Shown here: one piece after another, positions 32,384-34,682 of the stretch
How positions within the stretch are numbered: the stretch's first letter is position 1
Layout of the letters: each line of letters opens with the position of its first letter
Made by a program: the position numbers and the translations under genes
The notes under the pieces: generated by a model
Databases searched by the model: none
Told to the model about the DNA's origin: nothing
Seen by the model: only the letters and a program-made list of their open reading frames with translations
Assembly: GCA_963777605.1 (NCBI GenBank)
Contig: CAVZRV010000030.1
Coordinates: 352,001-416,000 of the forward strand
Reading direction: 5' to 3'
Length of the DNA: 64,000 nucleotides
From: an uncultured Acidobacteriota bacterium
GTDB taxonomy: Bacteria > Acidobacteriota > UBA6911 > RPQK01 > JAPXNP01

Positions 32384-32548
32384 TTAGCAGTTGCCGTCGC
32401 GGCAGGGCGGTGGGGGCGGCGGCGTCGGACAGCAGTCCTCGGTCTGTACAATCGGGTCCTGGCTCTCCGTTCCAGAGCCGGTCTGCGTGTCTGTCAGTGC
32501 TACGAACGACAGGGCCGTCAAAGTCGCAACCAAAATCCATTCAACCAT
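32384..32548 (-). CDS. 54-aa secreted Cys/Pro-rich peptide (putative signal precursor)
   Basis: AAAGGGAG RBS; hydrophobic leader WILVATLTALSFVA; C-terminus EDCCPTPPPPPPCRDGNC. Confidence 0.7.
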   Translation of the reverse strand: MVEWILVATLTALSFVALTDTQTGSGTESQDPIVQTEDCCPTPPPPPPCRDGNC

Positions 32549-32582
32549 CTCCACACTCCCTTTCTGTCCATCGGACCCGCGC

Positions 32583-32665
32583 AGACTAGACCCGGCACAC
32601 GCTTGGGACCAAAAATTTTCAGAAGGACCGAACACTTTCGGCTCGAGGTGTTCGGAATGTCCGAA
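32583..32665 (-). promoter_or_regulatory. Operator-promoter copy 1 (upstream of the peptide gene)
   Basis: Boxes at 32618-32632 and 32651-32665 (TTCGGAATGTCCGAA), 33 bp apart; putative -10 TAGTCT at 32583-32588. Confidence 0.75.
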
Positions 32666-32725
32666 AAGAGGTGACCGGAAAGGAATTCTTGATCTAAGCT
32701 GGAAGTCGCGAATAGACTTCAGGGG

Positions 32726-33466
32726 ATGTCGCTGTCTGAGATCCCAATGTTGTTCAACACGGGGCTGTTACTGGTTTTGGTTTTTCGGATGGTGAGCAAA
32801 GGATTGGTTTCGGATTACCGCGTTTTCTTCGGCTATCTGGTCTTCGAGACCATTGCAACCCTGGTTTCGGAGTGGATCATCCTCCAATTTGGATTGAATT
32901 CGACCGCGTACCGAATTGACTACTACACGTATTCGACTCTGACTCCGGCCTTCCAAATCTGGGTGCTCATCGACCTGGCTCGCCGCAACTTCCGGACCGG
33001 CAGCGAGTCTCCCCACGCCACCAACGTGCTCGCGGTGCTCTCGATCCTCGTGGGGCTTCCCGTGTTCGTGTTCATCGGGTTCTTACCGGTCTACGGCTAC
33101 GATCGGGTTCAGGCCGTCAGTCTGGTCTTTCAAATGGTCCTGACCCTGCTGATCTACCTCTACCTGCTGGAACGACGGGACATTGACCCGGGTAAGAACC
33201 TCAAGGCTATTCTGGGTGGGATGACCCTGATGGTCACCTGCCAGTCGTTGAATTTCGTGAGCTATTTCCAGGACCGAATCGGATTTGAGGTCTTCCAGTT
33301 CGGAGTCCCGGCGATCTACGGTGTGGCCCTGGTGATCTTCACCGTCGGACTTTGGAACTACGCACCGGCAAGTGCGTCGGCGGAACAGCGCACGCTGAAC
33401 CTGGGATTACAGCGGAGTGTCCGTTTAATGCTGCACCTTCTCTACGAGAGGCCATCCAGCCAATGA
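32726..33466 (+). CDS. Uncharacterised ~7-TM membrane protein (putative peptide receptor)
   Basis: About seven hydrophobic segments in 246 aa, no recognisable catalytic domain, divergent from the peptide gene. Confidence 0.75.
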   Translation: MSLSEIPMLFNTGLLLVLVFRMVSKGLVSDYRVFFGYLVFETIATLVSEWIILQFGLNSTAYRIDYYTYSTLTPAFQIWVLIDLARRNFRTGSESPHATNVLAVLSILVGLPVFVFIGFLPVYGYDRVQAVSLVFQMVLTLLIYLYLLERRDIDPGKNLKAILGGMTLMVTCQSLNFVSYFQDRIGFEVFQFGVPAIYGVALVIFTVGLWNYAPASASAEQRTLNLGLQRSVRLMLHLLYERPSSQ

Positions 33467-33885
33467 GATTCGATGACTACATTGAAATCTACTTCCTGGG
33501 ACTGGTCGCCTGTGTGGCCGTCGTTGCGGCCTACTACCACCTGGCTCGGATCGAGATCCGGGAATCGGATCGCAAGAAGCTCAGTGAAGCCAACCTCAAT
33601 CTGGAAGTGATCCTGATCATGCTGGAAGCGCCCGACACGCAGTACCTGATGTCAAAATCGGGCAGAGGAAAGTTCCTCTTCACGGAGTATTCCCGCTCGC
33701 TCAGGGCAGACGTCCTGGGGCTCATCCGGACACGGGAACTGGGTCTGAAGTCCTACGGACTGATTGCCGCCTTCTACGCCACCTATTGGGTAATGTCCTG
33801 GAAGAGCAAACTCTCGGCCAGTCTCAACGACATTCGCGTGCTCTCCGCGCTGGAACTCAGGCTGGTTCGGGCTCTAGTGTTCTGA
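33463..33885 (+). CDS. 140-aa hypothetical protein with N-terminal TM
   Basis: ATGA coupling to the TM gene; the C-terminal half is conserved in a second copy at 55724-55980. Confidence 0.75.
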   Translation: MRFDDYIEIYFLGLVACVAVVAAYYHLARIEIRESDRKKLSEANLNLEVILIMLEAPDTQYLMSKSGRGKFLFTEYSRSLRADVLGLIRTRELGLKSYGLIAAFYATYWVMSWKSKLSASLNDIRVLSALELRLVRALVF

Positions 33886-34452
33886 GTCGTCAGAGAACAG
33901 CGCACACCAGTTGACCAGGTAGTGCTGAACCAGCTTCTCCACGTAGCCCGGGCACCCTTCCGCCTTGAGGAAGAAATGGTAGGTGGCGTCGAGGTAGTTC
34001 TGCTGCCACCACAGGCCTTCACTGGGAGGATGGCCGTTTTCCAGGCGGACCAGACAGCGATCGAGCAGGAAGTCGCTCAAGTTCTGATACATCACGATCC
34101 GGCACGACCGGCCACGAACCTCAAACAGGGAACCCCCTTCAGCCCCGGAGAGCCGGATGACTTCTCCGAGGCGAAATTCCTGAAGCCGCCTCAGGTAGAG
34201 GAGTTCGCTGTCCTCGGCGCGGGTTCCTGACGATTCTGTCGGCCAGACTGCCGAGATATCGGCCTCGAGCACCCCGAGCACCCGGAACAGCGACTCCAGG
34301 TTCAGCCGGTAGGCTCCGGCCTCCATCGAGGCGTAGGAACTCGTGGGAATCCCGGCCCGCTCCGCAAGCTCCCTCAAGCCCACATTTCTCATCAGGCGCA
34401 GTCTTCGAAGCCGTTGTCTGACAAAATCATTCACCGATTGCCCGCAATCCAT
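33874..34452 (-). CDS. XRE-family HTH transcriptional regulator with unknown C-terminal domain
   Basis: LRRLR...VGLRELAERAGIP.SSYASMEAG...NLE.LFRVL..LE; RBS AAGGGGG. Confidence 0.88.
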   Translation of the reverse strand: MDCGQSVNDFVRQRLRRLRLMRNVGLRELAERAGIPTSSYASMEAGAYRLNLESLFRVLGVLEADISAVWPTESSGTRAEDSELLYLRRLQEFRLGEVIRLSGAEGGSLFEVRGRSCRIVMYQNLSDFLLDRCLVRLENGHPPSEGLWWQQNYLDATYHFFLKAEGCPGYVEKLVQHYLVNWCALFSDDSEH

Positions 34453-34596
34453 GGCTATTTCCCCCTTGGCATCACTTTGTCGGGAAACGTTATCGACGGG
34501 TTTCGGTCCTGTCAATACCCCAAAAGAGCATCTCGAGCGATCATCCTCTCAGACGCCACACGACGCCCCCTCGTGAAACGGCCGGAGCAGACCAGA

Positions 34597-34682
34597 GTGT
34601 TCGGGTATTCCGAACACTTTTGCCCCGAAGTGTTCGGACATTATGAAAATTCTTGGGGGCGAGAACCACGTTATGGTACATC
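34597..34682 (+). promoter_or_regulatory. Operator-promoter copy 2 (upstream of the Rhs operon)
   Basis: TTCGGGTATTCCGAA at 34600 and TTCGGACATTATGAA at 34633; extended -10-like TGgTACATC with TA at 34677. Confidence 0.75.

Follow-up and report, generated by a model that had tools for sequence, protein, structure and literature searches.

Gene organization of the cassette

Near the middle of the 64,000-nucleotide stretch of DNA analysed here (the window; positions 352,001 to 416,000 of the forward strand of contig CAVZRV010000030.1, assembly GCA_963777605.1, from an uncultured Acidobacteriota bacterium) lies a 2.1-kb unit of four genes. It comprises a small peptide gene on the minus strand, a plus-strand gene for a membrane protein with seven transmembrane (TM) helices (the 7-TM protein), a plus-strand gene for a 140-amino-acid (aa) protein, here called the adaptor, and a convergent minus-strand gene for an XRE-type regulator with a helix-turn-helix (HTH) domain (Table 1). 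A preliminary description of this DNA had listed the same elements, all of which are present with small corrections of coordinates, and had proposed that they form a peptide quorum-sensing system of a new kind. Our analysis points to a trans-membrane signalling module with a dedicated candidate peptide, whose larger genes are kept together among relatives and whose putative operator recurs in front of its own genes and of a small regulon.

Within the cassette, Pfam recognises HTH_3 alone, in regulator residues 15-63; the peptide, the 7-TM protein and the adaptor are without a match. In the same scan AgrB, a response regulator, a TPR domain and a complete kinase are all missing from the cassette, as the preliminary description had maintained, and so are HisKA, HATPase and REC domains, PAS kinases appearing only as variable neighbours or regulon members. 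NCBIfam and PADLOC gave no family for the peptide, the 7-TM protein or the adaptor; PADLOC returned weak HTH-domain matches for the regulator only (capH, E 3e-4) and none for the other cassette proteins. By sequence, the three proteins besides the regulator fall into no curated family and resemble no solved structure. The regulator start is placed at ATG 34452, because the TTG at 34515 falls within the gene's own -35 box. The truncated PAS-HisKA gene that adjoins the peptide open reading frame (ORF) lies outside the repeated unit, the boundary of the repeat being at 32383/32406.

Table 1. Positions of the cassette genes, operators and associated features in the window
Feature	Position	Strand	Remarks
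Peptide ORF	32384-32548	-	ATG at 32546-32548; 54 aa; Shine-Dalgarno-like stretch AAGGGAG upstream
7-TM gene	32726-33466	+	246 aa; divergent from the peptide ORF, 178 bp off
Adaptor gene	33463-33885	+	140 aa; ATGA stop/start overlap with the 7-TM gene
XRE regulator gene	33874-34452	-	192 aa; 3' end overlaps the adaptor gene convergently by 12 nt
Operator 1	32618-32665		Divergent peptide/TM promoter region; TTCAGaaggaCCGAA (32618-32632, 1 mismatch) and TTCGGaatgtCCGAA (32651-32665)
Operator 2	34600-34647		Between the regulator gene and P231-Rhs; TTCGGgtattCCGAA (34600-34614) and TTCGGacattATGAA (34633-34647, 2 mismatches)
Operator 3	54951-54998		Two perfect TTCGG-N5-CCGAA palindromes; between the S8 subtilase gene and a decayed regulator copy
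Putative regulator promoter	34487-34515	-	TTGACA (34515-34510), 17-nt spacer, TAACGT (34492-34487)
P231 gene	34737-35432	+	231 aa, secreted, no known family
Rhs gene	35432-41131	+	1899 aa; Pfam RHS_repeat
Truncated PAS-HisKA histidine-kinase gene	31645-32379	-	Pfam assignment; 4 nt past the peptide stop
S8 subtilase gene	52615-54678	-	Beside operator 3, faced by it
Cassette remnant	55151-55979		Regulator paralogue in three frames (55151-55718, +) and the last 86 adaptor codons (55722-55979, -); by tblastn

Conservation of the module in related genomes

Homologues of the 7-TM protein are found in 23 of the 61 genomes searched among relatives (G000 included). At each of 19 loci read in these relatives the TM gene is followed by the 140-aa gene and met by a convergent XRE gene, an assignment with which profile hidden Markov models agree; at 17 of them an ORF of 53-69 aa diverges from the TM gene, and its product has a hydrophobic N-terminus, then a polar linker that varies, then CC followed by a proline-rich tail. 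The trio is also complete at five more loci, which belong to other families; four of these have the peptide as well, and the contig of the fifth ends at the TM gene. In total, relatives carry the trio at 24 of 24 loci and the small CC/Pro-rich ORF at 21 of 24, at very low DNA similarity, and the peptide gene lies within the 2.1-kb unit at 25 of 28 loci when the genome's own copies are included. A check of this kind on homologues had been suggested beforehand, and it came out in favour of the module: the small ORF adjoins at 21 of 24 loci, the HTH gene at all 24, and a related tandem palindrome stands before the TM gene in several families. At locus L121 the peptide gene adjoins the regulator gene instead of the TM gene, which argues that the peptide belongs to the module and not to a particular promoter.

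The taxonomic range appears narrow. The adaptor profile finds members in 32 of 76 genomes, covering 19 of 32 genera of the order; in a sample of the phylum it finds them in 12 of 401 genomes, all 12 in the same order. These tallies include one unpublished positive genome, G018, on which no other claim rests.

A shared operator and candidate promoters

The sequence CCGAACAC-N12-GTGTTCGG occurs exactly at window positions 32628-32655, 34610-34637 and 54961-54988. When up to 3 mismatches are allowed the window contains four matches against 0.57 expected, a number that none of 100 shuffles reached. Across the 6.7-Mb genome, 7 exact and 3 one-mismatch places were found, all at cassette copies, while the reversed control gave 0. 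Each operator is made up of two 15-bp palindromes, TTCGG-N5-CCGAA, with centres 33 bp apart. The single palindrome matches 40 places genome-wide, 15 of them at cassette loci; the remaining 25 equal the count for the everted control (25), the reversed control giving 9. The operator that the preliminary description placed before both the peptide gene and the output operons is confirmed.

Candidate -35 elements stand at a fixed distance from these palindromes. For instance, -35-like hexamers lie 5 nt beyond both outer edges of operator 1, TTGGTC on the peptide side (minus strand, 32607-32612) and GTGACC on the 7-TM side (32671-32676), and operator 2 is followed by aattc and then TTGGGG (34653-34658), facing P231. 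The layout of operator and hexamer recurs in the other copies of the genome and in relatives; in other families, related tandem palindromes of the form T-T-(C/T)-G-G-N5-C-C-(G/A)-A-A, then 5 nt, then TTGAC(T/A), can be read by eye before the TM gene. The window hexamers and the regulator promoter are likewise readings by eye and are given as candidates. The promoter block of the regulator is conserved in an alignment of six regulator-upstream regions of the genome, and lies ~40 bp before the ATG and ~75 bp downstream of the operator. Because the regulator has this conserved promoter of its own, operator 2 probably serves mainly the divergent gene. A terminator scan returned a single candidate, located in the TM gene, a yield not above that of shuffled sequences.

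In genus g3 the gap between the TM and adaptor genes, ~200-300 bp long, holds tandem palindromes of its own (at 2474 and 2506 in L084, at 2361 and 2393 in L085), which suggests that the g3 adaptor has a separate regulated promoter.

The peptide

The window peptide is built of a hydrophobic, signal-like N-terminus, MVEWILVATLTALSFVALT (beginning MVEWIL), an acidic and polar linker, and the tail EDCCPTPPPPPPCRDGNC, which combines CC, a poly-proline run and C-x4-C. Judged on its sequence, it may be exported and processed. The ORF is open in all four cassette copies of the genome. Between copies A (the window copy) and C there are 18 synonymous and 8 non-synonymous codon changes, with 20 of 33 nucleotide differences at codon position 3; by this comparison, the ORF is constrained as a coding sequence. 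A strict pattern, which asks for an ORF of 40-95 aa, 12 or more consecutive uncharged residues among the first 28, and PPP no more than 6 residues after CC, has four matches in the six-frame translation of the 6.7-Mb genome, all of them cassette peptides.

These data bear on the reading that the small ORF is not a gene, its poly-Pro and CC being by-products of a G-rich regulatory stretch, so that the module would consist of the three larger genes. The poly-Pro tract is in fact a simple CCN repeat. Nonetheless, the idea is hardly credible, in that the ORF is kept open with an excess of synonymous changes, its pattern appears nowhere else in the six frames, the Shine-Dalgarno-like AAGGGAG precedes the ATG, and relatives preserve the same architecture at 21 of 24 loci despite their very low DNA similarity. 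A role for the poly-Pro run in a leader that stalls translation dependent on elongation factor P was rejected: nothing lies downstream in the unit, CC is conserved, and some peptides have no poly-Pro run.

CC is the most conserved feature of the peptide, present in 23 of 25 by reading of the printed sequences, and the remainder varies freely. PPP follows soon after CC in 18 of these 23. The peptide had been described as disulfide-constrained, and for part of the family this fits: further cysteines are present in nine of the 23 CC-peptides, seven of which have two more (CC-C-C, as in the window), L037 having a second CC and L121 one more. For the other CC-peptides the description does not hold.

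A modelled contact between adaptor and regulator

The adaptor begins with a TM helix, continues with a conserved cytoplasmic helical hairpin (~residues 30-98) that contains an APD motif, and has a second hydrophobic helix. Its residues 29-98 are rich in Lys and Arg, in agreement with an N-out/C-in topology of the 7-TM protein. Aligned adaptors are invariant at Y24, D58, D83, F104, K114, D123 and L127, and in the APD motif. The adaptor has no Pfam, NCBIfam or Protein Data Bank (PDB) match; in the protein atlas it has sub-threshold matches only (0.82), and no longer, fused forms were found in a search that is weak evidence on this point.

The regulator, whose public annotation is the generic "helix-turn-helix transcriptional regulator", is predicted by AlphaFold2 (AF2; mean predicted local distance difference test score, pLDDT, 84.2) to consist of an HTH domain (~residues 5-72) and a C-terminal domain with the order alpha-beta-beta-alpha-beta-beta-alpha (residues 81-192). 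The HTH resembles XRE and controller proteins in VIA at Z ~11 (for example 1y7y, Z 11.1 with a root-mean-square deviation of 1.5 over 66 residues, and 2b5a, Z 11.1); its sequence matches in the PDB, which span the HTH only, are controller proteins at E 1e-5 to 3e-5. The C-domain of ~110 residues is not TPR. Its VIA matches are Roadblock/longin proteins (9m28, Z 10.8; Mon1-Ccz1, Z 9.0; 3t1r, Z 8.6) and GAF-type folds at Z 8.6-9.4 (2qyb, Z 9.4).

The preliminary description had proposed that the signal is relayed from the partner of the 7-TM protein to the HTH protein, and modelling lends this step support. Models of the adaptor with the regulator, built from a 19-row alignment per protein taken from the same loci, score ipSAE 0.75, 0.74 and 0.75 against 0.01 for the best control; at least 80% of the contacts are common to the runs, and partner pLDDT is 75-76. 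The mark that such scores have to pass is reached by 58 of 80 solved complexes and by 2 of 110 mismatched pairs, a calibration that is only rough for custom alignments. The pass does not reflect a memorised structure, because the adaptor has no solved relative. Adaptor residues 41-79 are placed against regulator residues 83-91, 153 and 169-187, and conservation on the adaptor side of this interface exceeds that in the remainder of the adaptor's soluble part (0.66 vs 0.53). Among the adaptor residues at the interface, L45, I50, P57, D58 and E75 are conserved, and Y178 of the regulator is nearly invariant. The model supports a contact of the adaptor hairpin with the Roadblock/GAF-like C-domain of the regulator.

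Adaptor-bearing genomes also have a second, more distant class of adaptor-like genes (E ~1e-20 to 1e-22), at G051:C12, G047:C1, G060:C10, G443:C198, G016:C38, G030:C1 and G057:C4. No neighbouring TM or regulator gene was detected for those at L058 and L059.

The 7-TM protein

The AF2 model of the 7-TM protein (pLDDT 84.4; predicted template-modelling score 0.76) has seven TM helices and a C-terminal cytoplasmic helix at 219-240. Enrichment of Lys and Arg in loops 1, 3 and 5 and in the tail, over 20 sequences, indicates an N-out/C-in topology. The protein has no sequence match in Pfam, NCBIfam, PADLOC or the PDB, and Foldseek found no PDB match for the model at E<=0.001. In VIA, all 50 matches listed are 7-TM domains of eukaryotic G-protein-coupled receptor (GPCR) type, at Z 10.2-12.9.

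R21, S59, Y62, G156, N158, Q173, F190 and W210 are invariant in the 20 aligned sequences, an alignment that leaves out L032 because of its internal stops. According to the predicted topology, S59, Y62, Q173, N176 and F190 would lie in the outer half of the protein, where they may line a pocket in the outer leaflet, and R21, G156, N158 and W210 at the inner face. The aligned proteins have no invariant Cys or His and no set of Cys, His, Asp or Glu that hints at catalysis; roles as an exosortase, rhomboid or CAAX-type enzyme were rejected for want of invariant catalytic-type residues and of a Pfam family. A profile search of 1.84 billion representatives returned 576 relatives at E<=1e-3, of which 209 reach E<=1e-10 and 40 reach E<=1e-30. 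The best 150 of the 576 are stand-alone proteins of 76-355 aa, nearly all of 220-265 aa, with no fused output domain, and ten more distant relatives have no Pfam family. In the protein atlas, the 7-TM protein finds only "hypothetical protein" clusters of Acidobacteriota.

Putative outputs and regulon

The gene faced by the regulator-side operator differs between copies of the cassette. At copy A it is the P231-Rhs operon and at copy B a P231-like gene followed by a MopE-motif protein, named for a MopE-type Cu-binding motif. At the copies on contigs C31 and C44 it is a complete PAS hybrid histidine kinase divergent from the regulator, and at the C13 remnant an M12B-type peptidase; a further Rhs operon there has a second operator in front of it. 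Neighbours in relatives are mostly ordinary and diverse, including genes for aspartokinase, a TonB-dependent receptor, a Ser/Thr kinase, FUR-rubrerythrin and transposases.

Genus g3 shows what may lie under control away from the cassette. TTTCGG-N5-CCGAAA is present 8, 5 and 7 times per genome there, against 0, 1 and 0 for the control, and 11 of the 15 sites read have a hexamer matching TTGACA at 4 or more of 6 positions exactly 5 nt off, where ~7% would be a rough expectation (either side). The sites precede the module's own genes and one PAS kinase. In one g3 genome, G014, the palindrome stands at four places before homologues of P231 and Rhs (43% and 55-58% identity to the window proteins), in operons that are probably recent duplicates of each other. 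Because these sites precede P231 and Rhs although the cassette is elsewhere, the link between regulator, site and Rhs is kept across genera. The suggested connection to Rhs "competition" genes is therefore borne out in a second genus; as a rule of adjacency it fails, most relatives' cassettes not being beside Rhs genes. As read from sequence comparison, gene linkage, operator sites and the conserved link of the regulon to Rhs stand as established.

Several further observations concern these outputs. Secreted proteins with thioredoxin and TPR domains lie behind the operator in two g3 genomes (L083:1621-2448, plus strand; L093:1618-2442, plus strand), which is suggestive given the Cys-Cys of the peptide. 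Four g3 sites precede a family of ~140 aa (L086:1011-1436, L092:1010-1420 and L096:1000-1419 on the minus strand, L090:1549-2052 on the plus strand) with the N-terminus M-x-[IV]-R-Y-R-I-H and no Pfam or PADLOC match, which may be a further component of the regulon. In the window the Rhs gene is followed (41118-44090, plus strand) by a 159-aa ORF, possibly an immunity gene, a 519-aa protein with an RHS repeat and an SLT lytic-transglycosylase domain, and a TonB_C protein; C-terminal cassettes of the Rhs protein recur on C13, C14 and C30 at 82-92% identity.

The surroundings could also be those of a bacteriocin-type locus, in which a Sec-dependent antimicrobial peptide would be accompanied by self-immunity proteins (7-TM and adaptor) and a local XRE regulator. 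A small Cys-rich peptide with predicted export does have multi-pass membrane proteins and an XRE regulator beside it, Rhs toxin loci accompany the cassette in this genome, and a CAAX-type protease gene adjoins one related cassette (L071). Against such a function, a dedicated exporter, a leader protease and a modification enzyme are absent at all 24 loci read, and the operator controls a dispersed regulon. Binding of the adaptor to the regulator, as modelled, would be pointless for an immunity protein, and most genomes have a single copy, set among housekeeping genes such as those for aspartokinase and TonB-dependent receptors. We regard this interpretation as improbable.

Copies within the genome and their surroundings

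The genome contains four cassette copies and two regulator-only remnants, one in the window (Table 1) and one on C13. The window segment 32383/32406-34520/34987 recurs with 82-85% DNA identity at C30:419593-422209, C31:241707-243827 and C44:26820-28916. Copies A and B are intact. Frameshifts interrupt the TM and regulator genes of the C31 copy, and the C44 copy has stops in its TM gene. Three copies lie on the window's own contig.

A phage-integrase-family gene (28539-29912, minus strand) and a fragment resembling an IS3 transposase (30303-30767, minus strand) flank copy A, and another integrase gene (L020:10758-12035, plus strand) is 550 bp away from the copy B peptide gene. Both copies sit in variable DNA rich in mobile elements. 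The C31 and C44 copies share flanking genes, a VapBC-like pair and the PAS hybrid kinase, and may have arisen by segmental duplication or come from two strains or species in one bin. Beyond the truncated kinase gene, the next feature of note in the window is a gene for an avidin-family protein (31085-31495, minus strand; Pfam Avidin, E 2.4e-21), unusual for an acidobacterial bin.

It is conceivable that the cassette serves a mobile element for regulation or exclusion, with the XRE protein as an island or prophage repressor and the membrane proteins as accessories spread with islands. Four copies and two remnants at such identity, integrases near copies A and B with IS66, IS3, IS200 and DDE transposase genes nearby, and an HTH that resembles phage repressors and controller proteins all fit this idea. 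The unit, however, has neither terminal repeats nor a recombinase of its own, and a single mobile element carrying it was dropped as an explanation because the integrases of copies A and B are mutually unrelated. Most relatives have one copy among diverse, largely non-mobile neighbours, and the restriction to one order goes with a divergence that looks vertical. An origin as a mobile-element module is highly improbable; like the bacteriocin/immunity interpretation, it fits the data less well.

A model for the switch

We propose that the cassette works as a trans-membrane signalling module that is complete in itself and, within the genomes searched, confined to one order of Acidobacteriota, and give the full switch model a probability of roughly 0.45. 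The XRE regulator would bind the tandem TTCGG-N5-CCGAA palindromes 5 bp upstream of -35 boxes, and so act on the 7-TM/adaptor operon, on the peptide gene and on a small regulon, which in this genome would include the P231-Rhs operon, proteases and PAS kinases. A site upstream of -35 suits activation, with repression as the alternative. Translational coupling would supply the adaptor in a fixed ratio with the 7-TM protein, and its hairpin would hold the C-domain of the regulator at the membrane. The 7-TM protein would provide the extracytoplasmic input, for which the CC/Pro-rich, putatively exported peptide is the only ligand candidate encoded in the unit; in essence, the peptide would shift the adaptor between holding and releasing the regulator. 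The circuit would have feedback because the adaptor operon carries the regulator's site, as in sigma/anti-sigma operons. Export and sensing of the peptide, the direction of control, and an action of the peptide on its own cell or on neighbours are inferences; quorum sensing is put forward as a hypothesis. A more far-reaching version, in which the module would represent an undescribed class of cell-surface signalling with a stand-alone, GPCR-like 7-TM receptor reading the peptide and an adaptor capturing or releasing a Roadblock-domain XRE protein that controls Rhs toxins, secreted proteases and kinases, and would thus amount to peptide communication in a diderm phylum of soils and sediments that is not known to have any, is tentative and somewhat unlikely.

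Several results weigh against this switch. Some concern its promoters and protein parts: a generic sigma-70 scan found no consensus promoter in 32300-34800, the hexamers being readings by eye; on the regulator, conservation is lower at the modelled interface than elsewhere in the C-domain (0.49 vs 0.59); and the GPCR-type fold match may be no better than is commonly seen for helical bundles. Others concern the peptide. It is missing at 3 of 24 loci (two with transposase genes in its place, one off the contig end), two peptides, L041 and L043, have no CC, and the n-region of the window peptide (MVEW) has no positive charge. Between copies A and B the peptides differ at 3 of 42 codons and the 7-TM proteins at 40 of 246 (16%), so that peptide and receptor, compared by sequence, are not co-diversifying within the genome. 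Moreover, the organism has an outer membrane, which a peptide of ~35 aa must cross twice to act between cells. Finally, the genome is a bin with 5.68% contamination, and copies on other contigs are possibly foreign.

Some of these points would be accommodated if the peptide were instead a cis-acting co-sensor, periplasmic or signal-anchored, whose vicinal cysteines would inform the 7-TM protein of redox state, disulfide stress or a thiophilic metal, making the module an envelope-stress sensor. The near-identical peptides of copies A and B beside diverged receptors, and a diderm envelope that hampers free exchange of a 35-aa peptide, both suit such a role, as does CC being the feature most often kept (23 of 25). 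The two secreted thioredoxin-TPR proteins in the g3 regulon and the gene with a MopE-type Cu-binding motif, two positions beyond the copy B operator, point in the same direction. On the other hand, two peptides do without CC, the fast divergence of linker and tail between genera is more like that of signalling peptides than of a structural subunit, and the redox or metal chemistry is deduced from sequence. We consider the co-sensor a serious but unlikely contender to the switch model.

Acidobacteriota are abundant in soils and sediments, yet to our knowledge very little has been described of their regulation and social behaviour; a full-text literature search, covering listings and the openings of abstracts, returned no account of this module or of peptide signalling in the phylum. 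If the peptide is a signal, the cassette would provide a new receptor architecture, composed of a 7-TM protein, an adaptor and a one-component regulator, and a rare case of peptide communication in a diderm. If it is a redox or metal co-sensor, it would belong to a new kind of envelope sensor. Either way, annotation would be gained for three families that have none at present, those of the adaptor, the peptide and the 7-TM protein, the last with 576 representative clusters. The circuit is compact and testable: its DNA site is defined, the residues of the predicted contact can be named, the ligand candidate can be synthesised, and the outputs include Rhs polymorphic-toxin operons.

Comparison with known signalling systems

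Close parallels in layout are offered by the RRNPP regulators, among them Rgg/SHP, PlcR/PapR, PrgX and AimR/AimP. As in these systems, an XRE-type HTH regulator is encoded beside a small peptide gene whose product is predicted to be exported, a regulator site in the peptide promoter region provides a feedback loop, and output genes for competition or lifestyle choice are nearby. The C-domain of the cassette regulator, however, is a Roadblock/GAF-like alpha/beta domain of ~110 aa, where RRNPP proteins have a TPR array. The cassette also has two obligatory membrane proteins and a diderm host, and sensing is inferred to occur at the membrane and not in the cytoplasm. No oligopeptide permease (Opp) was found among the neighbours scanned, although importers need not be linked.

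With agr (AgrBDCA) and ComCDE the module shares a small precursor, a polytopic sensor with 6-7 helices, the logic of autoinduction and possibly a peptide constrained by a disulfide or ring. Here, by contrast, the 7-TM protein has no kinase domain and ends after a short cytoplasmic helix, no response regulator is present, no AgrB-like or ABC/C39 processing protein is encoded in the cassette, and output would pass through the bound XRE regulator. A seven-helix membrane module in a signalling context is also a feature of 7TMR-DISM proteins, from which the cassette 7-TM protein differs in having no Pfam 7TM family match and no fused output or extracellular domain.

For the regulator, two further comparisons are instructive. 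The controller (C) proteins of restriction-modification systems, such as C.AhdI and C.BclI, are the best matches of its HTH in structure and sequence, and they too employ paired palindromes beside the -35 element. Yet C proteins are HTH-only dimers of ~75 aa, whereas the cassette regulator has 192 aa, a second domain, a 33-bp spacing and a dispersed regulon, and no restriction-modification genes were found among the neighbours scanned. MmyB-like XRE regulators join an XRE HTH to a PAS-like ligand-binding domain with its own Pfam family. The cassette regulator has no Pfam match past its HTH, and GAF-type folds, at the Z scores given above, are among the matches of its C-domain.

Transcription factors can also be controlled by sequestration at the membrane, as exemplified by extracytoplasmic function (ECF) sigma/anti-sigma pairs and by Mlc held by PtsG. 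The likeness lies in a membrane-anchored partner that is predicted to hold a DNA-binding protein, and in a partner operon that carries the regulator's site. The differences are that the held factor is an XRE protein and not a member of the sigma-70 family, that the 140-aa anchor is without anti-sigma similarity, and that it is paired with a 7-TM protein and a peptide. In its logic the cassette resembles RRNPP, agr and anti-sigma circuits, but each of their defining parts that was looked for is missing: a TPR domain, AgrB, a kinase with a response regulator, and a sigma factor. It is best described as a relay from the membrane to a transcription factor that has a small peptide of its own and is built from unannotated families.

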